Shown in pieces: positions 2,569 to 35,600 of a stretch of DNA of 64,000 bases. How positions within the stretch are numbered: the first letter of the stretch is position 1; every line of letters starts with the position of its first letter. The DNA comes from a virus, in the IMG/VR virus record IMGVR_UViG_3300049783_001607, one strand, 5' to 3'. The notes under the pieces were generated by a model. That model worked only from the letters and a program-made list of their open reading frames with translations. It ran no database searches and was not told where the DNA came from. Made by a program: the position numbers and the translations under genes.

Positions 2569-3303
2569 TTAACTGTTAAATTTTTGTTCAATACATAATT
2601 TACTTAAAGCAGACCAAGTAGTTGTAGGTTTATTTAACAATTTACATCCTTCTCCGTTATAAAAACATTTACTACTTAGATATAAAGGTATTTTATTAAT
2701 AGTATACTCTTTTGGAATAATATTATAAGTAACAATACCTTTACTCATTATCGAACCAAATTGAACATTTTGATTTTCATCATACAAGGTCAATACTAAT
2801 TCCTCTGGAAATTTTTTTAAGTTGTCTTTTAAGCACCATTTATTTAGATTATTTTTAGCTAGAGCTTGCAAATGTTTTTTTTCTTGCAAATGTTTTAAAG
2901 ATTCTTGTTCTTCAATAGTCAATGAAGTAAGAGCTTTAATATTTATTTGAGCCCACACTTTACACCAGTCTTTTTCAGTATGATTAGAACTAATTAAAGC
3001 AATAGTAACATCCGTATTTTCAGGATGAGTTATTGTTTCAAGAATAGTATATTCATAAGATTTATGAGTTTGTTCTCTACTAACTTCAATAGTATCTCCA
3101 TTTTTAAATGGTAATCCTTTTTGAGTTAATTTAGGAGTATATACAACTGTATCGTTAGATTCGTTAATATATTTAGGTAACTTTGTTTTCCAAGCAAATA
3201 TATTTTCTCTAGTATTAGTTATATAGTTCCATTTTTTAAAATTAGAATATATTTGCATCCAATTAGATACATATACTTTATCATTTGTTGACGCCATAAT
3301 CAT
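2569..3303 (-). CDS. Hypothetical protein
   Basis: 244 aa ORF, operon-packed. Confidence 0.75.
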   Translation of the reverse strand: MIMASTNDKVYVSNWMQIYSNFKKWNYITNTRENIFAWKTKLPKYINESNDTVVYTPKLTQKGLPFKNGDTIEVSREQTHKSYEYTILETITHPENTDVTIALISSNHTEKDWCKVWAQINIKALTSLTIEEQESLKHLQEKKHLQALAKNNLNKWCLKDNLKKFPEELVLTLYDENQNVQFGSIMSKGIVTYNIIPKEYTINKIPLYLSSKCFYNGEGCKLLNKPTTTWSALSKLCIEQKFNS

Positions 3304-3309
3304 TTTATT

Positions 3310-3759
3310 TTATGTTTCATTAGTTATAACTTTTTTATTACTCGGTCTATTATATAATTTCTTTAACAAATCATACGTTTCAATAAATTTTTCTCTTACA
3401 AAAGTTTTATCATTTGAAAATCTAACATTTATATGTGCTTCAAGTTGATTAACTAAAATAGATTCTATAGCTTTTAAATCATCTATATAACACATTCTTC
3501 CTTTCATTCTATTCATATCTTCACAACATGAAAATACTAAACATGTTTTATTGTTTCTAGAACATTTTGCTAAATAAATTCCTTCGCATAATAAATAAGA
3601 AAGCAATTTTCCTGATACATTACAGCAATCGTAACCTGAATCATCTTCAAGTTTTCCATGCATATAATAATAAGATGCTCTGAATCCTTGATCTTTGCTT
3701 AATTCGTTCATTCCGTAGCCTTCCCAATTATCAGGATATATAATATTTTCTGCTTTCAT
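3310..3759 (-). CDS. Hypothetical protein
   Basis: 149 aa ORF, operon-packed. Confidence 0.7.
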   Translation of the reverse strand: MKAENIIYPDNWEGYGMNELSKDQGFRASYYYMHGKLEDDSGYDCCNVSGKLLSYLLCEGIYLAKCSRNNKTCLVFSCCEDMNRMKGRMCYIDDLKAIESILVNQLEAHINVRFSNDKTFVREKFIETYDLLKKLYNRPSNKKVITNET

Positions 3760-5083: not shown

Positions 5084-5449
5084 TTATTTAATTGTTTTTA
5101 ATGCGTCTTGTAAACCTTTTTCTAAAGATTTTTCGTAAGATTTATATATTAAAACTTCTTTTGTAATAACATAACTGTTTACTAATCTTTTAATTACAGG
5201 AAAAAAACTCATTCCTGAATCACTTAAATTAGAACTTACTACTAAATCGTGTTTTTCTCTCAACCATCTTTTAAGTTCCGATTGAGTTATATTAAAATAC
5301 CAAAATGAATTTGTATTTAATTGTTTTCTATGCCAATTATGAGGTTGTTTCAATTCACCTAATTTTATAAAATCAGCTATACATAATCCTTTTTCGTTAG
5401 CTAATTGGACTGTTTTAAATTCAATTAATTTATCTTTAATATCTATCAT
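5084..5449 (-). CDS. Hypothetical phage protein, paralog of 5446..5835
   Basis: Shared TQS.L..WLRE.H and E..LEKGLQ motifs. Confidence 0.75.
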   Translation of the reverse strand: MIDIKDKLIEFKTVQLANEKGLCIADFIKLGELKQPHNWHRKQLNTNSFWYFNITQSELKRWLREKHDLVVSSNLSDSGMSFFPVIKRLVNSYVITKEVLIYKSYEKSLEKGLQDALKTIK

Positions 5450-5835
5450 TTAATGGCTTTTAAAATTTCTTGTAAACCTTTTTCTAAAGCATCTTCGAAA
5501 GTAGAAAAATCTTCGCCGCTAACATTTTTATAAGGCGGTACTTCCATAGTATCTTTTTTTAGAATATTAAGTATTTTAAATGTCCAATTTGATGTTATTG
5601 TAGGAATAATAATAACGTAATATCCGTGTATTTCTCGTAACCACTTATTAAGTAATGATTGTGTTGGAGCTGTGATTAAATAATTATCGCCATCTATAAA
5701 AAATTTATGGTTATAATTAGTAAGTATCTCTCTATTTTGAAAACTCCCATCAGAATGATATGCTTTACCTACCCAATCAAATCTTTTCTTTTTTGCTAAT
5801 TCAGATGTTTCAAATGTTGTTATTTCATCTTTCAT
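5446..5835 (-). CDS. Hypothetical phage protein, paralog of 5084..5449
   Basis: APTQSLLNKWLREIH...FEDALEKGLQE. Confidence 0.75.
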   Translation of the reverse strand: MKDEITTFETSELAKKKRFDWVGKAYHSDGSFQNREILTNYNHKFFIDGDNYLITAPTQSLLNKWLREIHGYYVIIIPTITSNWTFKILNILKKDTMEVPPYKNVSGEDFSTFEDALEKGLQEILKAIK

Positions 5836-5865
5836 TTTTTACTGATTTTAATTTGATTAATAATT

Positions 5866-6416
5866 ATAACCCTCTTTCTTATTACCAGGGAACTATAAGG
5901 CACCTGCTATAAATAGTTTACTGCTTATATTCGTAATAAGAGTAGGGTTATGTAGTTAATGATACTTTAGCAAGGTCGGATGCATAACTGCCATTACCTG
6001 CTTTTCTTAGTCCGGTCCATAGAATCAATGGAATTTATAACTACTTATTGAGAATTCATTTGTGTTGTAGCCGTCATAATACACTAGGCTCACTAAGATT
6101 TCCTTCTCAAAGGAACAACACAAGAAAATATTACTATTTTCATCCAATTTTTAAAGAGGTTTTCGATGTTCAGTCCTCTATTTACTAGGATTACTCCATT
6201 AATTTTTAGGTCTAACCTATTACAGCGATTTCCATCAAAGCTTACGCTCAAGTTTTCTGCTTAATATCCTGTCAATTTAGGATTAGTATATTTATGTGTA
6301 TAATAAAAGGTACGGTTTCAAACCTCAGTTATAGTTTCATCTACTTATAGTTAAATAAGTGACCATTTGGTGCCTTCTTTTTATTATTATTCACAAAGGA
6401 TCAATGTTTAGCCTTT
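5866..6416 (-). ncRNA. Large structured ncRNA candidate, motif A copy 1
   Basis: No credible ORF; about 10 colinear conserved blocks shared with 6424..6855, separated by variable hairpins. Confidence 0.65.
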
Positions 6417-16051: not shown

Positions 16052-17998
16052 TTAATAATCTATCACCTCGATTAAAGGTATTACAATAATCTCATCCCTT
16101 GTAATAATTTTTGGAGTATTTAATCTTTTTTCATTTATTGTACTAACAGTTTTTTTATTAGTTACCTCATTTTCTGCAAATTCTAAGCAATCTTCTACAT
16201 ATGTATATGAAAAATGACCTGCGGGTATAGAATTTACTCTGAAGTGGTTTTTTGAAATATACTTTGTTATTACACCTAGTTTACCAATTGTGTCGTCCAT
16301 GGAATCTATCCAATTAAAAGGAGGAGGAGAATTTATATTTTTGCGCTTTATTCTTACAATATCGTCTTTTTTAAATTTCATTTCCGGTCCAATTTCTAAA
16401 GAATCTTCAAAAAATTCTCCATTTTTAAGCATTTCGTCATAAGGATTCATAACTACTATGTCTCCGTGGGTATTTAGTTTTGTTGTCGGATCTAATATTA
16501 AAGATTCTACAGGAAAAGTAAACCTTTCATATGCTACATTTATTTCTTCCCCCCGGCCATTTAAAAATTTTAATTTAACACTATTAGAACTTTCTAATGT
16601 TTTACGTACTATTGCTTTAAGAGAAATAGCAGAATCCATTTGCTGAATCCATGAGCATAATTTATTATCACTGTATTTTTTTAAAACAATTACTACATCA
16701 TCTTTTTTAAAGCCATCATAGTTAACACTAGGCTTTTCAGCATTAAAAATATCAATATGTTCTTCTTCTTTAATTAAAGCCGCATTTCCAGGAATTAAAG
16801 ATTGTAAAGGATATGAATATACATGAAAAGAAGGGGAAATAAAATTATAATCAGAACTTAAAAATTTTAATTCTGCACTTTCATTTATAGTGTTAATTTT
16901 TGCTATAATAGCTTTATAACCAACAGCTTCTGTCATTTCAGGTTCCCAACTACATCCTTTATTTTCACGATATATTTTATTAACTCTTACTGAAGAACCT
17001 TCTATAAACTTATTTATATCTATTTTTTCAGGTGAGTCTTTAATATTAGATTCTAGTTTTAATGATTGTATGGGAGATCTGTTAGCTACCCATCCAATAT
17101 TAGATTCTAGTTTTAATGATTGTATGGGAAATCCTTTGCCTCCTCCCAACTCAGATATTTTTTTTTCTAGTGAAATATCTATAAATTTTAATTGTGCAAA
17201 TTTATATCTATAATTTACACTTTGTACTATTGCTGATCTTTTTAGAGTCATATCCATAGGCGAAATCCAAACACAATTTCTATTGTCTCTATATATATTA
17301 TCTACTATTACTTCAGATCCTTTTTGAATCTCTAGTAATTCTAATGATTCAACAGGAAACACCCAGTTAGAACTGCTAAATTCATTTTTTAAAATAGTGT
17401 TATGAAATTTTAACTTTGCTATATTTTTAAATACATTTACTACTGTAGCAGTTTTTCCTATAGTTTTATCCATCTTAGATACCCAACAAGCATCCATATT
17501 TTCAGAATGTTTTTTAGTTACTTTTATTTCTGATCCTTCTTTTATGTCCATGGTATTAGATTTAGTGTATTTTTTTAAGAATTCTTCCGATAGTGGGGGC
17601 AGTGGTATTGGTTCCTGGTTTAAAAAACATTCTGAGGGTGTAAGGGGTCTTTCCATTGCAGTATTGAGATAAAAAGGATTGGAAGCTGATTTATTAAATC
17701 CTCTAGCAGCCGTATCTAAATACATAGTACGCATACTTGAATATGTATTAGGCACAAAAAGAGAATCATTATTGGAATATACTAAAGATTCTATAGGGAA
17801 TGACATGTTTTTAAACTCGTTTTTTAAATGAGGTGAACTAAACATTAAATTTACTACACTATTAGACCATACATAACTCACTTCTGCAAAATGTCCTATA
17901 GCTTTATCCATTGTTGGAGTCCATCTACATGTTTTATTTTGTCTATATATTTTATCTACTTTTATTATATCTCCTATTTGTATTTTTTCTGTTTTCAT
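16052..17998 (-). CDS. Six-repeat protein (SH3/KOW-like beta repeats)
   Basis: Six copies of G..V.V....N..C.W...MD..IG..A.V...FP.ESL. Confidence 0.75.
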   Translation of the reverse strand: MKTEKIQIGDIIKVDKIYRQNKTCRWTPTMDKAIGHFAEVSYVWSNSVVNLMFSSPHLKNEFKNMSFPIESLVYSNNDSLFVPNTYSSMRTMYLDTAARGFNKSASNPFYLNTAMERPLTPSECFLNQEPIPLPPLSEEFLKKYTKSNTMDIKEGSEIKVTKKHSENMDACWVSKMDKTIGKTATVVNVFKNIAKLKFHNTILKNEFSSSNWVFPVESLELLEIQKGSEVIVDNIYRDNRNCVWISPMDMTLKRSAIVQSVNYRYKFAQLKFIDISLEKKISELGGGKGFPIQSLKLESNIGWVANRSPIQSLKLESNIKDSPEKIDINKFIEGSSVRVNKIYRENKGCSWEPEMTEAVGYKAIIAKINTINESAELKFLSSDYNFISPSFHVYSYPLQSLIPGNAALIKEEEHIDIFNAEKPSVNYDGFKKDDVVIVLKKYSDNKLCSWIQQMDSAISLKAIVRKTLESSNSVKLKFLNGRGEEINVAYERFTFPVESLILDPTTKLNTHGDIVVMNPYDEMLKNGEFFEDSLEIGPEMKFKKDDIVRIKRKNINSPPPFNWIDSMDDTIGKLGVITKYISKNHFRVNSIPAGHFSYTYVEDCLEFAENEVTNKKTVSTINEKRLNTPKIITRDEIIVIPLIEVIDY

Positions 17999-18103: not shown

Positions 18104-18138
18104 AAAAAAAGCGGGAGTATGATAAACCCACGCTTTTT
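18104..18138 (-). terminator. Intrinsic terminator downstream of tmRNA
   Basis: Imperfect GC stem (agcgggag/cccacgct) with A/T tracts on both sides. Confidence 0.6.
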
Positions 18139-18182
18139 TAATAATTTAATTAGTGGAGCATAAGGGATTCGCTTTAGTTTCA

Positions 18183-18214
18183 TTTGTTTTAACCACTAAT
18201 TTAATTTATATTTG
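18183..18214 (+). promoter_or_regulatory. Bacteroidota sigma-70 type promoter for the intron endonuclease
   Basis: TTTG (18183) - 20 nt - TATATTTG (18207), 4 nt before the ATG. Confidence 0.75.
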
Positions 18215-18218
18215 CAAT

Positions 18219-18725
18219 ATGAATTACAAAAATAATAGAAAATTAATAGAGTTAAAATGCGATGGTTGTAACACTATTTATAATAAACCTGAAAAAGATT
18301 ACAAAAGAAATCTTAGAGTAGGTAGAAAAAGCTATTGTACTAGAATTTGTGCTGGTAAACACAATAAAACTACACATTTAATTCCCGGTAACAGAAATGA
18401 TACTTTTACTCCTTACAAGTATTATATGAAAAATGTTAAACAACGTTTTAAAAATCACAATATAACATTAATAGATTTACAAAACCAATGGTTACAACAA
18501 AAAGGGATTTGTCCTTATTCTGGTGTAAAATTAATATTGTCTACTCATAGTAAAAGAGAATCTAACACTGTTTATGGAGCTTCTTTAGATAGAATAGATT
18601 CTACTTTAGGCTATATAAAAGGTAATATTCAATTTACTTCAAAAGCAATAAATTACATGAAAGGAGAAATGACTCATGAAGAGACTTTAAACTTATGTAA
18701 AATAATATCTATTAATTACAAATAA
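18219..18725 (+). CDS. Putative homing endonuclease (His-Me/HNH-like), antisense within the intron
   Basis: N-terminal CxxC..CxxxC, CPYSG, SLDRIDS.LGY.KGN...N..K; ATG 18219 preferred over GTG 18153, which lies in the tmRNA 3' end. Confidence 0.8.
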   Translation: MNYKNNRKLIELKCDGCNTIYNKPEKDYKRNLRVGRKSYCTRICAGKHNKTTHLIPGNRNDTFTPYKYYMKNVKQRFKNHNITLIDLQNQWLQQKGICPYSGVKLILSTHSKRESNTVYGASLDRIDSTLGYIKGNIQFTSKAINYMKGEMTHEETLNLCKIISINYK

Positions 18726-19231
18726 ACTTACATTTCTATAAGGATCGGACTATATCATCAACTGTTCTAGTTGTTGCTTCCTGTGGGCTATCCGTAGATT
18801 CCCTAGTCTCTGAACCTTCTCACTTCTTCCAGTGAGCTTGGCTGCTGATTAGCTTAGGTGCGTCTTTCAACCCTTAGCTTCCCAGTCAATTCAAGCAATG
18901 TTTTTTATTAAGTATCCCTACTTAACTGGTCCGAATTTCTTTAAACCCTTGTCTTCCGCTACTCAATAAATAATATTTTATAAAGCTTATGTGTAGTTTT
19001 AATTCTTCTCCAGAATAGGAACAACTGATTAAAGTTAGTTCACCACCACTTATTTTTTTAAGAAATAAGAAACTTTGTAATATATTATACAGCTTCACTA
19101 TTATAATAATAAAAGATTACTCCCATATTAAATACAATTTCGGGTCTTGCTCTAGTTTTTGTGTTATCCAAACTCAAGGTTCCTGTAATATATTGTGCAT
19201 AGCCCTCCTAAACCTTTTTTGGGTATTGACT

Positions 19232-19357
19232 CTATGCTGCCACTGCTAATTCCTTTTCTTGGACTGGTACTGTACTTCCCAATTCTTCTGATCCAGAGTT
19301 TAGAATGTTGTAAACAACTTTCATGTTAGCTTCCGATTGATTCTTAATTTCGTTTCC
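19232..19357 (-). other. tmRNA tag reading frame, 41 aa GNEIKNQSEANMKVVYNILNSGSEELGSTVPVQEKELAVAA
   Basis: Resume context aataaacGGA; C-terminal LAVAA degron-like; TAG stop. Confidence 0.75.
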
Positions 19358-19449
19358 GTTTATTAAAATTCACCTATGTTTAGAGTTTTCTCTCGCTTAA
19401 TATTATAAATCTTGTATGAAATCAACACCGAAAATGCCCCAGTTAATCA

Positions 19450-19457
19450 CAAATGTA
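19450..19457 (-). promoter_or_regulatory. Bacteroidota -7 promoter element for ssrA
   Basis: TACATTTG 9 nt upstream of tmRNA 5' end. Confidence 0.7.
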
Positions 19458-19710: not shown

Positions 19711-20618
19711 AATATTATAGTTTAAAAGTTAAATAAAACCTCTTCAAAATATCACTATTAAGAAGAGGAAAATTGCTATGAAACAGAGTTACCTAATTAC
19801 TCCGAGGTTAATATTTTCTAGTAACTACATTTATTACGCTATCTTGCATTTTGCAATTAGTGCATTTAGTTACTTTTATCGTTCTGCTAAATTTTGTTAG
19901 TTTATTAATAAAACTGACTGAATCTTTTGTTCCACAGAAAGAACATTGTATTTTATTTGTAATGATACTCACAACACTATAGTTATACTAGCATAGCTGA
20001 TAGTTAAGTGACAAAATGCCCAGACCATAAAAATGGCTGTAATAACTCTTTTTATGTCGTAATTTTCTTTCCTGGATAATGGTTCCAATGTTTTAATCAC
20101 TGCTAATCCGAATACTATAATCATTAATGCGTCCATGGGTATATTTTTAAATTGGTTATTATTTTAAGGTTTAATATTTAAAATAACTGCCGCGTGTTTA
20201 CATTTGTACTATATCTACTCCCCTTTAGAATCGGCTTTAATAGAATATCAACAAAAACTCAGCAGTTATTTTAAGAGATAAATTAGTAAGAATCGTATAT
20301 TCCCTACTAAAGAAACAATTCTGTACGATTCATTCATCCCTTTTAAGAGTTCATTCGAAGTTTCTCAAATTTCAAATATAGCACACATCACAAAATACTG
20401 ACATAGTACTAGCCTCTATTCTTTACAATATATTCTTCGGCTTAAAGGAATATACTAAGAGTTTTTTATCTTTATCATATCCCATTTTAATTTCTTTCTT
20501 CAACATTTTATGTTGCACTTAGAAATAGGACAAGCGCTAACTTCTTTAATACGCTTTTATCTATCATCATTTATAAAGGCTTTAGACTTTTGGATTTTAT
20601 CATATTATTCCAGCTGAT

Positions 20619-20861
20619 TTAATATTCTAATGGTGGTTTAAAGTGTCTATTTAATACAATTAATCTGGGGTTTGTTGATTTTAGATTCCGGCATTTTCTA
20701 CATTTACACGGCTCATTTACAAATCTACCGCAACCCGGATGATATTTATAACCTAAATCAAGTTTTTTTTGTATTTTACCAGAATGTATCCATTTCTCTA
20801 AAGTATCAGGGTTTGTTATTATTAGTGTACCTCCCATAGGTTTTTCCCATTGATCGCTCAT
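20619..20861 (-). CDS. Small Cys-rich hypothetical protein
   Basis: HPGC...CKCRKC. Confidence 0.65.
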   Translation of the reverse strand: MSDQWEKPMGGTLIITNPDTLEKWIHSGKIQKKLDLGYKYHPGCGRFVNEPCKCRKCRNLKSTNPRLIVLNRHFKPPLEY

Positions 20862-30725: not shown

Positions 30726-30854
30726 ACTTCAAAGGTAACAATTAAAAATTAAAGTAGTATCTTTATAGAAAGAAATACTTTGCGCCAACCGGGCATGTAT
30801 CGCTACCTTCTCGTTGGACACTATAGCCTCTATTTATTTAGAGGCTATTTTTTG

Positions 30855-30930
30855 TGGGATGAGTAAGAATCGAACTTACGCAATGTCGCTGGGCTTCAAC
30901 CAACCGCTCTACCAACTGAGCTATCACCCC
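30855..30930 (-). tRNA. tRNA-Phe(GAA)
   Basis: Cloverleaf; anticodon loop TTGAAGC. Confidence 0.92.
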
Positions 30931-30940
30931 ATTATTTTTG

Positions 30941-31014
30941 CGCGGCCGGAGAGACTCGAACTCCCGACACCTGGTTTTGGAGACCAGTGCTCTGGCCAAC
31001 TGAGCTACACCCGC
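30941..31014 (-). tRNA. tRNA-Trp(CCA)
   Basis: ctggt-CTCCAAA-accag. Confidence 0.93.
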
Positions 31015-31025
31015 ATTTATTATTG

Positions 31026-31099
31026 AACGTCTGATGGGACTCGAACCCATGATCTTTCAGATTTGCAGTCTTTTTCCTTAGCCGCTCGGACACAGACGT
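31026..31099 (-). tRNA. tRNA-Cys(GCA)
   Basis: Loop CTGCAAA, U73. Confidence 0.9.
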
Positions 31100-31111
31100 A
31101 TTTAATAATAG

Positions 31112-31186
31112 CTCCTTAGGTTGGACTCGAACCAACAACCCCCGCATTAACAGTGCGATGCTCTAACCAGTTATAGCTACTAAGGA
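31112..31186 (-). tRNA. tRNA-Asn(GTT)
   Basis: tcgca-CTGTTAA-tgcgg. Confidence 0.93.
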
Positions 31187-31325
31187 ATATTTATATATTT
31201 GTAAACATAAAGCCAGTTCATATGAGGCTACAGAAACATCATCTATATCTTTAGCCCAAGTAACTATACCGTTAGGTAACACCACTTTTAAAAACCCGTC
31301 TTCTTGTTTAGTTATAATCATATTG

Positions 31326-31410
31326 TAGAAAGAAGAGGACACGAACCCCAAGGTATTACCCTCCCACTCCTTAGCAAGGAGGCCCAGTACGCCTGCCTGG
31401 TTTACTTTCT
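31326..31410 (-). tRNA. tRNA-Ser(GCT)
   Basis: ctcc-TTGCTAA-ggag, long variable arm. Confidence 0.85.
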
Positions 31411-31416
31411 ATTTTG

Positions 31417-31499
31417 CAGAGAATAAAGGAATCGAACCCTCAAGTATAACCTTGGCACGGCGTTCAAAACCGCTTATGCACCGCTGCATGCTACTCTCT
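31417..31499 (-). tRNA. tRNA-Ser(TGA)
   Basis: gcggt-TTTGAAC-gccgt, long variable arm. Confidence 0.87.
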
Positions 31500-31504
31500 A
31501 ATTG

Positions 31505-31594
31505 TGGGAATGATAGGATTCGAACCTATAATGGGGTCTTTCAACACCTACAGATTTACAGTCTGCTCGCTTCAGCCAATTTGCATACACGCCC
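31505..31594 (-). tRNA. tRNA-Tyr(GTA)
   Basis: gcaga-CTGTAAA-tctgt, long variable arm. Confidence 0.92.
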
Positions 31595-31604
31595 GATTTA
31601 AAAC

Positions 31605-31636
31605 AAAAAAAAAGACCCATTAATTAAAATGAGCCT
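31605..31636 (-). terminator. Attenuator terminator of tRNA operon C
   Basis: AGGCUCAUU/AAUGGGUCU stem plus long U tract, about 10 nt before tRNA-Tyr. Confidence 0.85.
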
Positions 31637-31661
31637 CTAGTTTGGTTGTATATTTTCTTAA

Positions 31662-31736
31662 TTACCCAAATAGCTCATCTGATCCGTTATAAAACGAATT
31701 ACAGAAATTACTATATGACCAACTTGTTACTTTCAC
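31662..31736 (-). CDS. Leader peptide C, MKVTSWSYSNFCNSFYNGSDELFG (GTG start)
   Basis: 13 consecutive codons for Ser/Trp/Tyr/Asn/Phe/Cys, the tRNAs downstream. Confidence 0.88.
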   Translation of the reverse strand: MKVTSWSYSNFCNSFYNGSDELFG

Positions 31737-31758
31737 TGTATTATTATTATTTAAGATG

Positions 31759-31766
31759 CAAATGTA
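31759..31766 (-). promoter_or_regulatory. -7 promoter element of tRNA operon C
   Basis: TACATTTG matches Bacteroidota TAnnTTTG. Confidence 0.8.
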
Positions 31767-31830
31767 CTACTTTATTTGTAATTATAAAAGAAAAAAATAC
31801 TTTTAATGGTTATTATTGCCTTGGGCTCCC

Positions 31831-32025
31831 TTAGTGATAGGGATAATTGTCATAAGTATCTTGGAAATACGATTGCCAAATAACCTGTTCTGTAGTAGTA
31901 ATAAGCTTAAATTTTTTCCAGGCCCCTTTGGGAAAAAGCTCTTTTACTGTATTAACTACATCAGCTATATTTGTACTTTCGGTAACTTCGATAGTTTTTT
32001 TTGTGGTATCTATTGTTAATTTCAT
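31831..32025 (-). CDS. Hypothetical protein
   Basis: 64 aa ORF coupled to 32022..32348. Confidence 0.65.
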   Translation of the reverse strand: MKLTIDTTKKTIEVTESTNIADVVNTVKELFPKGAWKKFKLITTTEQVIWQSYFQDTYDNYPYH

Positions 32026-32348
32026 TTATTTAAAAGTTTGAATGCTTTTTCTAAATCTATAAAAAAAATTAAAGGTTTATCCCCTATCAAAGTAGAATGC
32101 ACTTCATCTGAAAGTCGATTTTTGCTAAATTCAACACTGCCAGAATGTATGTCCCATTTAATTGAATTAATTGATTCTTTTCTTTGAATATAAGTAGCAG
32201 ATCCAGAAGAGTCTACATATTCAATCTCATCTTCTCTTTCGTATATTCTAAGCGAGCCTATTGGCATTTTAGTGTTTTGATTTTTAAAACTATTATCAAA
32301 GACTATAGTAGATAATGTTTCCGTCTTTCTTATTTGTTTATTTTTCAT
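32022..32348 (-). CDS. Hypothetical protein
   Basis: 108 aa; TACCTTTG promoter 4 nt upstream. Confidence 0.7.
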   Translation of the reverse strand: MKNKQIRKTETLSTIVFDNSFKNQNTKMPIGSLRIYEREDEIEYVDSSGSATYIQRKESINSIKWDIHSGSVEFSKNRLSDEVHSTLIGDKPLIFFIDLEKAFKLLNK

Positions 32349-32427
32349 AAATCAAAGGTAGTAAAAATAATGTTAACATGCAATAAGACAGCATTGTAAC
32401 CTGTATTTTACTATTTTAAATACTAAG

Positions 32428-32505
32428 TGGTCCTGGAGTGAATCGAACACTCATGTGACCTAGTTACGATTTCAACTGATTATGAGTCAGAGCCGATACA
32501 GGACC
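32428..32505 (-). tRNA. Atypical tRNA(CAT), probable Ile2 (lysidine), lacking a D-arm
   Basis: Perfect GGTCCTG/CAGGACC acceptor, GAGTG-TTCGATT-CACTC T-arm, ctga-CTCATAA-tcag. Confidence 0.7.
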
Positions 32506-32513
32506 TTAATTAG

Positions 32514-32587
32514 AAGAGGTAGAGGGATTCAAACCCCCAATCGGCAGGATAGAAACCCGCTGCGTTATTCAGTTACGCCATACCTCC
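32514..32587 (-). tRNA. tRNA-Arg(TCT)
   Basis: gcggg-TTTCTAT-cctgc. Confidence 0.88.
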
Positions 32588-32631
32588 ATTACATAGTTTT
32601 AAGTAAATTTAGGTAACTACAGACCTAGTTG

Positions 32632-33108
32632 TTATCCATGTATTTCTTTTAGTTTGGCTGAAGATAAAAGTACCATAACTAGTATTTCAGCTAATAAAAA
32701 AGATATATAATCTGTAAAATAACCTATAACAAATACGCTTACTGCTGAAATAACTACTGCAATACCTACTTTTTTATCTAAAGATGTCTCCCTGTTCCAT
32801 AACAGTGTAAAACAAGCTAATAAAATTGTAACTACAGTAACTATATTATGTAAACTTGTATGTTTATACATATCAAAAGCTAAAATTAATCCCATACCTA
32901 AAGCTAATAGATATTCAGTAGCGTATTTTTTTACTCGTGCATTCAAAAGAAAAAACCAAGAAGCAGTCAAGTGCATTAAATTATAAAATACATTATTATC
33001 AGCCGTAGCGTAAGCACTTAAAGAAGTTAAATCTTCTCCTCTTGTAACCCATATAAGAGCTGAAAATAAAATAGATAATAAAAGCAATATTGTTTTTAAC
33101 AGTTTCAT
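32632..33108 (-). CDS. Multi-pass membrane protein inside tRNA operon B
   Basis: About 6 hydrophobic segments. Confidence 0.75.
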   Translation of the reverse strand: MKLLKTILLLLSILFSALIWVTRGEDLTSLSAYATADNNVFYNLMHLTASWFFLLNARVKKYATEYLLALGMGLILAFDMYKHTSLHNIVTVVTILLACFTLLWNRETSLDKKVGIAVVISAVSVFVIGYFTDYISFLLAEILVMVLLSSAKLKEIHG

Positions 33109-33194
33109 AGTAATATAAGTTTAGTTTGAGTAAAAATACAACAATTAGCTGTAAATTCAAAGTTACTTTGCAATGATTAAATTTATTATTTTTG

Positions 33195-33267
33195 TACAGT
33201 GGGTAGGAATCGAACCTACGACATCTTTCGTGTAAAAAAAGCGCTACTACCGCTGAGCTACCACTGC
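33195..33267 (-). tRNA. tRNA-Val(TAC)
   Basis: ctttt-TTTACAC-gaaag. Confidence 0.88.
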
Positions 33268-33359
33268 AAGTAGGACCAATTATTTTATTAATCGGTCCCG
33301 ATAAAAGACCTATTTTGGGACACTTCAAAACTTCACGAGAGGTGTAATAGGTACTGTTG

Positions 33360-33432
33360 ATCCCAAGGTCAGGTTCGAACTGACGACATGCTCCTTACAA
33401 AAAAGCCGCTCTACCAACTGAGCTACTCGGGA
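33360..33432 (-). tRNA. tRNA-Thr(TGT)
   Basis: gcttt-TTTGTAA-ggagc. Confidence 0.88.
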
Positions 33433-33525
33433 ATGTCAAAGCTAAGGTATTCTCACGTCGATCGTTACCTATAAGGATGATAGCCCCTTGCTTTGATAGT
33501 TGTCTAGGATATCGCCTAAACTCTG

Positions 33526-33600
33526 CAGTCTATACGGGATTCGAACCCGTGATCTCCGCCGTGACAGGGCAGCGTCCACTCCTGGCTGGACCGATAGACT
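33526..33600 (-). tRNA. tRNA-Asp(GTC)
   Basis: ctgcc-CTGTCAC-ggcgg, G73. Confidence 0.93.
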
Positions 33601-33659
33601 ATTTGTGCCCTATCTAAAACCCTTTCCGGGAAAAGCCGCTGAGCACGTCTTAATTCTTG

Positions 33660-33732
33660 TGGCGAGAGAGGGATTCGAACCCCCGACCTGATGGTTATGA
33701 GCCACCCGAGCTGGCCACTGCTCTATCTCGCT
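33660..33732 (-). tRNA. tRNA-Met(CAT), initiator-like
   Basis: 1:72 mismatch, GAGC/GCTC D-stem, loop CTCATAA. Confidence 0.88.
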
Positions 33733-33741
33733 ATATTTTTG

Positions 33742-33813
33742 TTGCGACGATGGGATTTGAACCCATGACCTAGTAGATATGAACCACTTGCTCTACCTCT
33801 GAGCTACATCGCG
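33742..33813 (-). tRNA. tRNA-Met(CAT)
   Basis: agtgg-TTCATAT-ctact; C1:A72 mismatch, so initiator vs elongator is ambiguous. Confidence 0.85.
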
Positions 33814-33950
33814 ATATGTTTATACAATAAATCTTCTTCGTTTTTTCCAGGTTGCACGTTTCGATTTGTTAAATAAAAAAGAGTTATCTCTTCTAACTTC
33901 TTCTCTAGTTTTTACTTGTTCACTCATTTTCTTACTTTATTAATTATTTG

Positions 33951-34024
33951 TGCAGGATGCGAGGATCGAACTCGCTCTGTTCTAGATTGGAAGTCTAGCG
34001 CACCACCACTTATGCGTATCCTGC
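33951..34024 (-). tRNA. tRNA-Gly(TCC)
   Basis: ctaga-CTTCCAA-tctag. Confidence 0.92.
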
Positions 34025-34270
34025 GTTTGTTGGAACAGATGGATTTGAACCGCCGACATTCGTAGTATCAGTACGATGCTCTACCCCTGAGCTATGCTCC
34101 ATTATTTCTTTTCTTACTTCTTCATCTAAAAATTTTTTGTTCTTATTTTTTCTAGCTTCAAGTCCTATACCTTGACAATACCAGCAGTTACATTCATACC
34201 TTCTTTCTAGCTCTCTTTTACTATCAGTATACTTTTTATTAAATTTATTTTTTCTATATGTTCTACTCAT
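34010..34270 (-). CDS. Small basic CxCxxC protein within tRNA operon, reading through tRNA-Ile
   Basis: MSRTYRK...CNCWYC. Confidence 0.6.
   Translation of the reverse strand: MSRTYRKNKFNKKYTDSKRELERRYECNCWYCQGIGLEARKNKNKKFLDEEVRKEIMEHSSGVEHRTDTTNVGGSNPSVPTNAGYA
34030..34101 (-). tRNA. tRNA-Ile(GAT)
   Basis: tcgta-CTGATAC-tacga. Confidence 0.92.
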
Positions 34271-34282
34271 AATTAAATTTTG

Positions 34283-34354
34283 TGCCTCTGGCCAGTACTG
34301 ATCTGGCGGTCCTCTGTTTAAAAGACAGATGCTTTACCATTAAGCTACAAAGGC
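34283..34354 (-). tRNA. tRNA-Lys(TTT) with atypical T-loop
   Basis: tctgt-CTTTTAA-acaga; T-loop ATCAGTA. Confidence 0.85.
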
Positions 34355-34514
34355 AATATCCCCTGCAACTAGTCAGGAGTAATTAACGTTTAAACTTCTT
34401 AATAAATTTTTTCATAATTTTTAACGGTGAAATGTTTGCTCCACTAAATCTCATACTATTAGCAGAAAATAAATATTCATGTTTGTTCATATCATTATAA
34501 TTTAGTTAATGTTG

Positions 34515-34587
34515 TGGAATCGGAGGGAATCGAACCCTCAGGACTGTCGTTGCAAACGAAAGTGTCTAGCCAATACAACACGACCCC
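34515..34587 (-). tRNA. tRNA-Ala(TGC)
   Basis: G3.U70, loop TTTGCAA. Confidence 0.88.
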
Positions 34588-34589
34588 AT

Positions 34590-34621
34590 AAAAAAAGCTC
34601 CTATCTTTCGAAAGGAGCTTT
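34590..34621 (-). terminator. Attenuator terminator of tRNA operon B
   Basis: AAAGCUCCU/AGGAGCUUU stem, GAAA loop, U tract, 2 nt before tRNA-Ala. Confidence 0.88.
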
Positions 34622-34643
34622 ATGTTGTTTGTAATGTTTTAAA

Positions 34644-34724
34644 TTATCCACATATAACGTCCTTCCAAAGAGCTTGATCTCTCCCTGTTTTAACCGTAAC
34701 CGCTATGTTCATAATTGTTTTCAT
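34644..34724 (-). CDS. Leader peptide B, MKTIMNIAVTVKTGRDQALWKDVICG
   Basis: 15 of first 16 codons read by the 11 downstream tRNAs. Confidence 0.88.
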   Translation of the reverse strand: MKTIMNIAVTVKTGRDQALWKDVICG

Positions 34725-34755
34725 TGAAAATTGTTCTTTTTTTTACTATTGGTTG

Positions 34756-34763
34756 CAAATGTA
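34756..34763 (-). promoter_or_regulatory. -7 promoter element of tRNA operon B
   Basis: TACATTTG. Confidence 0.8.
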
Positions 34764-34810
34764 CTTCATTATATTATACTTTCCTAACAAAAAATAAATT
34801 ATTTGTATAG

Positions 34811-34885
34811 AATCTCTCCAGGGACTCGAACCCCGAATCTCTTAGTTCGTAGCTAAGTGCTTTAATCCAATTAAGCTAGAGAGAT
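34811..34885 (-). tRNA. tRNA-Arg(ACG)
   Basis: cttag-CTACGAA-ctaag. Confidence 0.92.
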
Positions 34886-34904
34886 ATTTATAAAGGTAAT
34901 ATTG

Positions 34905-34990
34905 TGCCCAAAGCGAGAGTCGAACTCGCACGACCTTTACAGATCCACAGATTTTAAGTCTGCTATGTCTACCAATTCCATCATGAAGGC
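34905..34990 (-). tRNA. tRNA-Leu(TAA)
   Basis: gcaga-CTTAAAA-tctgt, long variable arm. Confidence 0.9.
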
Positions 34991-35082
34991 ATTATAACGT
35001 CGTCGGGAATCACCTAGCTGCACTCATCTTATCTAGGATTAAAGTTTCGACACCTATCTGCTTATTATTTTCCCAACTATTG

Positions 35083-35168
35083 TGTCTACGAAGGGATTCG
35101 AACCCATAAACTTTTTCAAGAACTGGTTCCTAAGACCAGCGCGTTTACCCAATTTTCGCCACATAGAC
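35083..35168 (-). tRNA. tRNA-Leu(TAG)
   Basis: ctggt-CTTAGGA-accag, long variable arm. Confidence 0.92.
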
Positions 35169-35228
35169 AAATTACGATTTCAAAAACTTCTTGTACAGAA
35201 GATAACCTAATCGTTTGGTTAATTTGTG

Positions 35229-35302
35229 GGTGAAAGCTGGGGCTCGAACCCAGGGCTCCAGGACCACAACCTAGCGCTTTAGCCGGTTAAGCGACAATCA
35301 CC
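35229..35302 (-). tRNA. tRNA-His(GTG)
   Basis: ctagg-TTGTGGT-cctgg; G-1:C73. Confidence 0.9.
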
Positions 35303-35336
35303 ATATAATCTATATATTGTATATATAAATTGATAG

Positions 35337-35407
35337 ATGAGGTAAAGAGGCTCGAACTCTTGATTCGGCCGTCAAAGGGCCGCGTGTTACCGCTACACCA
35401 TACCTCA
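35337..35407 (-). tRNA. tRNA-Gln(TTG)
   Basis: cggcc-CTTTGAC-ggccg; U1-A72. Confidence 0.92.
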
Positions 35408-35418
35408 TTATTACATTG

Positions 35419-35490
35419 TACTGCGACGGAGAATCGAACTCCGGTTACCAAGGTGAAAGCCTGGCGTCTTAGCCACTGGACGACCGCAGC
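35419..35490 (-). tRNA. tRNA-Glu(TTC)
   Basis: ccagg-CTTTCAC-cttgg. Confidence 0.92.
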
Positions 35491-35523
35491 ATATTTTATA
35501 TCCGCTCATGATATAAATTATTG

Positions 35524-35600
35524 TCTAAGAAGTGAGAATCGAACTCACGAATCTCTTGTTTCCAAAACAAGCGGGTTCTTCCGTCTGCCCTAGCCCCTAG
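35524..35600 (-). tRNA. tRNA-Pro(TGG)
   Basis: cttgt-TTTGGAA-acaag; C1-G72, A73. Confidence 0.88.

Follow-up and report, generated by a model that had tools for sequence, protein, structure and literature searches.

A tmRNA gene of an uncultivated phage, very probably split in its T-loop by a group I intron that carries an antisense nuclease-like gene

Transfer-messenger RNA (tmRNA) genes that are interrupted by an intron have been described from bacteria. A 2025 catalogue lists 883 unique intron-form sequences, all of them with introns in the T-loop, at four subsites (PMC11915505). In that catalogue, the intron at position 3 occurs in Bacteroidia only (9 genomes), the homing endonuclease genes are of the LAGLIDADG type, and the longest gene measures 1152 bp; RefSeq viruses were searched, and a viral intron form is not mentioned (PMC11915505). 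Collaborative homing, in which a free-standing nuclease gene accompanies an intron-bearing gene, is represented by F-CphI, a neighbour of the intron-containing psbA gene in cyanophage S-PM2, and by T4 mobE with the nrdB intron (PMC6083498, PMC3984707, PMC2790892). Here, we describe a locus at positions 18154–19440 of a 64,000-nucleotide stretch of viral DNA from IMG/VR record IMGVR_UViG_3300049783_001607 (the whole stretch is called the window). The locus is very probably a phage-borne tmRNA gene in intron form, split in the T-loop by a group I intron. No published intron-split tmRNA of a phage was found in the literature searched. The intron form of the gene is known from bacteria, and the window carries its phage form; new here are the link to the position 3 introns of Bacteroidia, a swapped antisense gene for a putative nuclease with free-standing relatives, and a tag of about 41 codons.

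The split gene was proposed in a sequence-only reading of the window, and its coordinates and junction are borne out exactly. The gene lies on the minus strand and, counted from its 5' G through the discriminator, measures 1,287 nt. Its features are as follows (window positions):

19450–19457, minus strand: TACATTTG, a weak match to the Bacteroidota −7 box TAnnTTTG, 10 nt ahead of the mature 5' end.
18944–19440, minus strand: tmRNA exon 1, 497 nt, comprising GGGGCAU as 5' acceptor strand, the body and the 5' T-arm half, which ends in ...AAGGGUU; assigned by 70% identity over 221 nt with the tmRNA of phage phi14:2 and by end-to-end alignment with six phage tmRNAs.
19232–19357, minus strand: tag reading frame of 41 codons, from GGA AAC to ...LAVAA, followed by TAG.
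18172–18943, minus strand: group I intron, 772 nt, first base U at 18943 and terminal G at 18172, with a unique junction.
18726–18952, minus strand: ribozyme core, P1 to P9 (Rfam group I model RF00028, 82.3 bits, E 5e-21).
18219–18725, plus strand: antisense nuclease gene of 168 residues, between P9 and the 3' splice site; likely a homing endonuclease gene.
18207–18214, plus strand: TATATTTG, a second weak TAnnTTTG match, immediately ahead of the ATG of the nuclease gene.
18154–18171, minus strand: tmRNA exon 2, 18 nt, made up of T-loop CGAAU, the 3' T stem, AUGCUCC as 3' acceptor strand, and the discriminator A.
18106–18138, minus strand: terminator-like hairpin and U run, 16 nt past the discriminator (−13.1 kcal/mol, z −4.1).

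On the minus strand, the 5' junction at 18944/18943 reads ...GACAAGGGTT / TAAAGAAATTCGGACC..., and the 3' junction at 18172/18171 reads ...AAACTAAAG / CGAATCCCTTATGCTCCA. Excision of 18943–18172 joins ...AAGGGTT to CGAATCCCTT..., and the resulting T arm, AAGGG-TTCGAAT-CCCTT, is perfect. The intron thus sits within the loop, between nucleotides 2 and 3 (UU/CGAAU). As had been claimed, this removal restores GGGTT/CGAATCCC, and only the 18943/18172 junction does so; shifted junctions fail to rebuild the loop, because T follows GGGTT and G precedes CGAAT. CCA is not encoded, and the discriminator A is followed by CUA. None of 200 shuffled sequences folded as well as the terminator-like hairpin; a simple terminator scan listed nothing, this hairpin included.

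Since ARAGORN and Rfam gave no tmRNA call for the gene, relatives were used to identify it. Exon 1 matches a stretch of Cellulophaga phage phi14:2 (Crassvirales) with 70% identity over 221 nt and a BLAST E-value of 3e-16 in a search against 2.3 Gb of phage records, and is, therefore, no chance resemblance. In this stretch of phi14:2, ARAGORN calls a tmRNA of 470 nt and Rfam gives 46 bits. The same region (L001 2336–2950, GenBank KC821624) is annotated in the phi14:2 record as four small hypothetical proteins, gp011–gp014, on both strands. Pattern scans of IMG/VR, in which the first pattern found phi14:2 only, supplied further uninterrupted relatives (L004, L007, L008, L011 and L017). Four other loci from the second pattern (L018–L021) were dropped, as BLAST gave no match between them and exon 1 of the window. 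The relatives score 24–58 bits with the Rfam tmRNA model (RF00023), whose gathering score is 47, and the long uninterrupted relative L008 is rejected by ARAGORN, as the window gene is.

The spliced window sequence is colinear with six phage tmRNAs in a MAFFT alignment. Both hallmarks of the tmRNA class's tRNA-like domain, a 7-pair acceptor stem with G3.U70 and the T-loop UUCGAAU, are present. The acceptor stem is formed by GGGGCAU (19440–19434) and AUGCUCC. Its last three pairs covary among the relatives (CAU/AUG, GCG/CGC, UCG/CGA, ACG/CGU, CUG/CAG), while G3.U70 is constant. The 5-pair T stem, which forms between the two exons, also covaries in the alignment, and an inner helix reads CAGC/GCUG in the relatives and AAGC/GCUU in the window. 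Other origins of these elements were considered and rejected. The T-arm half does not belong to a tRNA, as no acceptor partner lies upstream within tRNA distance and exon 1 aligns at full length with tmRNAs. A chance 7-mer acceptor match, conceivable in isolation with an estimated ∼0.6 expected in 1.3 kb, is ruled out by homology and covariation.

The tag reading frame is open for 38–44 codons in all seven sequences compared (window, L001, L004, L008, L011, L017 and L022). It starts with GGA AAY and ends with LA(V/M)AA or LIAA before the stop. The other two frames each contain 2–7 stops, and insertions and deletions in the tag frame are multiples of three. A block of the tag, ANMxVVHNILN, is conserved. 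With 41 codons in the window, the tags of this family are about four times the usual length; the tag that ARAGORN reports for the relatives corresponds to the last 9–11 codons only. The resume codon was placed provisionally, by the Rfam alignment of phi14:2. Such an unusual frame, with its conserved block, could suggest a tmRNA-derived RNA that does not perform ordinary trans-translation and serves instead as a decoy for SmpB or alanyl-tRNA synthetase, or as the carrier of a functional 41-residue peptide. There is a parallel in the tmRNA-like RNA of phage DS6A, which is reported to inhibit the host tmRNA (cited in PMC11915505). However, the frame closes with the usual LA(V/M)AA before its stop codon, the surroundings of the resume codon are similar to those in Bacteroidota tmRNAs, and G3.U70 has been retained; we regard a non-canonical role of this kind as quite improbable.

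The interruption itself has the features of a group I intron. The RF00028 match (18952–18726, minus strand; gathering score 50) covers the full model, with P3–P9 present, and in its alignment the P4 and P7 strands are canonical, as are the P, Q, R and S elements, which the sequence-only reading had called so. Its proposals for P1 and P10 were also correct. In P1, exon GGUU pairs with intron GACC (18931–18928), with a U.G pair at the splice site. In P10, intron AUUCG (18936–18932) pairs with CGAAU of exon 2 at all five positions. The last intron base, at 18172, is a G. A further possibility, that an element had integrated and thereby duplicated the tmRNA gene's 3' end, was rejected because a ribozyme core, P1, P10 and a terminal G are present. 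The RF00028 match was obtained in a scan of 1.6 kb only and was lost when the whole 64-kb window was scanned; introns elsewhere in such windows may likewise escape whole-window Rfam scans.

Introns at the identical junction are found in three further tmRNA genes of the same type. L022 has a layout like that of the window, with an intron also of 772 nt; judged by eye, its core is ∼90% identical to that of the window, while the exons and the nuclease gene are ∼70–75% identical. L159, from a Tara Oceans scaffold, likewise has a 772-nt intron, with a core 98% and a nuclease 90% identical to those of the window. L024 is a far more divergent and GC-richer phage tmRNA with an intron of 798 nt. In a comparison of the window, L022 and L024 with RNAalifold, 15 predicted pairs in P2, P5, P6, P8 and P9 are kept through two-sided changes. 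P3 reads UUGCUU/AAGCAA in the window and CUGGAU/GUCCAG in L024, with three double changes read by eye. The outer T-stem pairs, which span the intron, differ among the four genes (AAGGG/CCCUU, GAGGG/CCCUC, GUGGG/CCCAC, CUGGG/CCCAG). Their change on both sides argues for selection on the ligated product, and the intron is thus predicted to splice.

Several results weigh against this interpretation of the locus. ARAGORN found no tmRNA in the window, in the unspliced gene or in the spliced sequence. RF00023 gave no match on the unspliced gene in the 1.6-kb scan, and a search of the whole window with Rfam gathering and E-value thresholds returned neither tmRNA nor intron. In the terms of the Infernal check suggested with the original proposal, the group I model matched (82.3 bits) and the tmRNA model gave no match on the unspliced gene; the accompanying expectation that standard tmRNA finders would miss the gene was right. 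The acceptor stem of L022 contains one A-G mismatch. Substitutions in the tag frame, counted as pairwise differences, are distributed 266/271/309 over the three codon positions; this third-position bias is slight, so the exact resume point stays provisional. A sigma-70 promoter scan gave background level only. The TAnnTTTG boxes are weak evidence for promoters, because the motif is common in AT-rich DNA (0.68 per kb per strand in the window) and the boxes are not conserved in the relatives.

These failures of ARAGORN and Rfam might also be read as signs of a decaying gene, in which the intron, or a long 3' tail with an antisense gene, blocks accurate splicing and leaves a tmRNA pseudogene. About 550 nt separate P9 from the terminal G, and no pairing is assigned from the start of the nuclease gene to the 3' splice site, as such a reading would have it. 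It is nevertheless very improbable in our view: conservation of the ribozyme core is strong and includes compensatory changes, covariation in four genes links T-stem strands on opposite sides of the intron, exon 2 is still fully complementary to exon 1, and contigs ∼25% different in sequence have kept this layout.

The intron also has bacterial counterparts. When representative genomes were scanned with a pattern common to the phage introns, introns at the same junction (GGGUU/CGAAUCCC) were recovered in Marinoscillum (three species), Ekhidna and one metagenome-assembled genome of Bacteroidota. Their cores, including an insert after P7, are 66–69% identical to that of the window, and they carry a LAGLIDADG open reading frame (ORF) on the sense strand that ends at the terminal G. 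Rfam confirms both parts of these genes, with 86–88 bits for the tmRNA and 89–93 bits for the intron. The shared junction and the core identity place the window intron in the "position 3" lineage, where position 3 is assigned by our reading of the text of PMC11915505.

With the same intron pattern, metagenome contigs yielded ∼13 genuine cases and IMG/VR another 7, some of them shared between the two collections. At least 10 of them are distinct, further phage-like examples, a number from which duplicates, L022, L024 and contigs with bacterial-type exons have been left out and which rests on one narrow sequence pattern. Intron-form tmRNA genes are, thus, not rare in uncultivated phages. The sequence-only reading had called a phage copy unusual, which holds for the literature searched, where it is unreported, and does not hold for the phages themselves.

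The nuclease cargo of these introns varies as follows:

Antisense HNH-fold gene: window, L022, L024, L118, L159 and L166.
Sense LAGLIDADG gene: the bacterial copies and viral contig L177.
Antisense LAGLIDADG gene: L176, L179, L174 and L143.
No nuclease gene: L175.

In L175, an 87-kb IMG/VR contig, a tmRNA T-loop intron of 278 nt at 5655–5940 has no ORF. It is 99% identical over ∼253 nt to the 798-nt type of L024 and retains only a stub of the nuclease gene, and is, therefore, a deletion derivative. When 21 cores were placed in a tree, a split with 100/100 support had both nuclease types on each side, which implies that cargo was exchanged more than once.

The nuclease gene of the window is an intact ORF of 168 codons (18219–18725, plus strand), antisense inside the intron. 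The product matches PHROG "endonuclease" families, among them phrog_3322 (E 2e-21), and searches of Pfam, NCBIfam and PDB sequences returned nothing significant. An AlphaFold2 model built with 19 homologues has a mean pLDDT (predicted local distance difference test) of 83, and its top Foldseek matches are all HNH nucleases: PacI (the best), Gme HNH, McrA and Cas9 HNH domains. Family members share a zinc-ribbon-like N terminus and the invariant block ASLDRIDS.KGYIKGNIQF, and the window protein keeps all of the family-invariant residues. Against a standard HNH assignment, even the best match is weak (PacI, E 2e-3; template modelling scores of 0.48–0.55), and the 19 family members share no invariant histidine. 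We, thus, refer to the protein as HNH-fold and not as a canonical HNH enzyme; its nuclease activity is predicted from sequence and model.

A total of 29 relatives of the nuclease were found in IMG/VR, at least 20 of which adjoin a tmRNA gene. About 17 are free-standing on the same strand, 50–310 nt downstream of an uninterrupted tmRNA gene (among them L027–L036 and L038–L042; in L030, for example, the tmRNA lies at 2447–2857 and the nuclease gene at 3001–3465). Two (L025 and L026) are convergent with the tmRNA gene, and two (L022 and L024) are antisense after a group I core, as in the window. No nuclease gene is present beside the tmRNAs of phi14:2, L004, L008, L011 and L017, and some crAss phages carry the gene away from any tmRNA. 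In crAss phage cr56_1 (L002), a homologue annotated as "endonuclease" has no adjacent tmRNA, and RAGATH-9 and RAGATH-20 RNAs (1287–1444 and 2091–2188) lie beside it. In several phage contigs, GOLLD RNAs (315–330 bits) are located 0.3–1.5 kb from the pair of tmRNA and nuclease genes (L027:4891–5305, L028:1657–2066, L030:4412–4825 and L032:2429–2836; weaker in L026:1039–1468).

The frequent proximity to tmRNA genes, together with the lack of a canonical catalytic histidine, would also fit a conserved phage partner of tmRNA, such as a processing or host-directed nuclease, that is not a homing endonuclease. We consider this unlikely. The distribution is patchy, with the gene missing next to the tmRNAs of five relatives and present elsewhere in crAss phages; where it is found within introns, its orientation is antisense; LAGLIDADG genes can take its place at that point of the intron; and L175 has lost it by deletion. 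Homing endonucleases are distributed in just such a patchy way, with a tie to a single target gene. Probably the HNH-fold family was at first a free-standing neighbour of phage tmRNA genes and entered the intron later, as in collaborative homing.

A wider scheme is possible, though we stop short of calling it probable: the T-loop of tmRNA would be a landing site common to phages and their Bacteroidota hosts, with one intron lineage moving between them and repeatedly swapping its nuclease cargo. Sense LAGLIDADG, antisense LAGLIDADG, antisense HNH-fold and none would then be cargo states of that lineage, and the HNH-fold family would have been caught at the step from free-standing to intron-borne. 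If true, the collaborative-homing model would gain a natural series, and one found in an RNA gene.

The features of the locus suggest how it might work. Transcription, splicing, charging, cleavage and tmRNA function are all predicted here from the DNA. A single precursor of ∼1.29 kb, plus leader and trailer, would be transcribed up to the hairpin at 18138–18106. The intron would splice itself out with guanosine and join GGGUU to CGAAUCCC, restoring the T-loop, so that the ligated junction would read GGGUUCGAAUCCC. RNase P, 3' trimming and CCA addition would then yield a mature RNA of 515 nt, which alanyl-tRNA synthetase could charge through G3.U70. With host SmpB, this RNA may rescue stalled ribosomes, adding a tag of ∼41 residues that ends in LAVAA. 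The antisense nuclease gene would be expressed from its own promoter, and its product would cut intronless tmRNA alleles of co-infecting phages; during repair, intron and nuclease gene would then be copied jointly into the cut allele.

Genes for a large terminase subunit, for a portal protein and for a major head protein, the last with nearest matches in uncultured gut phages and crAss-like phages, are present in the window; the carrier is, therefore, a phage, and one of the crAss-like kind. The GC (guanine plus cytosine) content is ∼30%, and no closely related phage emerged from blastn with 8 kb of the structural-gene region. On the minus strand, 30854–35600 is occupied by 22 tRNA genes in an array that contains no suppressor; long ORFs are intact under the standard code. 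An ORF of 648 residues (16052–17998, minus strand), just downstream of the tmRNA terminator, has no PHROG match and consists of about six repeats of a module of ∼30 residues (V.V.K.Y..N..C.W...MD..IG). A match resembling the type-P1 twister ribozyme, located ∼1.1 kb upstream of the tmRNA gene at 20557–20625 on the minus strand, scores 44.3 bits against a gathering score of 67.2 (E 1.6e-6), and L011 has a similar sub-threshold one ∼2.6 kb upstream of its tmRNA (5415–5466).

Since this form of the gene is invisible to ARAGORN and routine Rfam searches, phage annotations undercount both tmRNAs and introns, and small ORFs called across such tmRNA genes are spurious, as in the phi14:2 record. Through the locus, an intron site that is rare in bacteria is connected with phages whose hosts probably belong to the same phylum. 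The locus also provides natural states for the assembly and loss of a mobile intron: a free-standing nuclease, an intron with either nuclease family in either orientation, and an intron with its nuclease deleted. A conserved tag of ∼40 residues raises the question of what effect phage tmRNAs have on stalled host or phage proteins.

Among known systems, the closest are the position 3 introns of Bacteroidia (Marinoscillum pacificum, M. luteum and Ekhidna sp.), which share the junction, a homologous ribozyme and a nuclease gene after P9 with the window. The differences concern the carrier, which is a Bacteroidia bacterium in the class of PMC11915505 and a phage here, so that the window gene departs from the class on this point; the nuclease, which is antisense and HNH-fold in the window and sense LAGLIDADG in the Bacteroidia copies; and the intron length, 772 nt compared to ∼640 nt. 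At 1287 bp, the window gene also exceeds the longest tmRNA gene of the catalogue (1152 bp; PMC11915505). The precedent named in the sequence-only reading was clostridial. The tmRNA intron of the Clostridium botulinum type (ref. 11 of PMC11915505) is also a group I intron in the T-loop, whose splicing restores the loop; however, it is located at position 7, whereas that of the window is at position 3, and the closest precedent is that of Bacteroidia. The tmRNAs of phi14:2, L004, L008, L011 and L017 belong to the same family, with the long tag frame and the same helices, but have neither an intron nor an adjacent nuclease gene. The likeness to collaborative homing is that a nuclease family occurs free-standing next to a conserved phage gene and that this gene harbours a group I intron. 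Unlike F-CphI and mobE, the target here is an RNA gene, the nuclease gene of the window is antisense within the intron, and cleavage is only predicted. Both the free-standing and the intron-borne states are seen in the nuclease family of the window.

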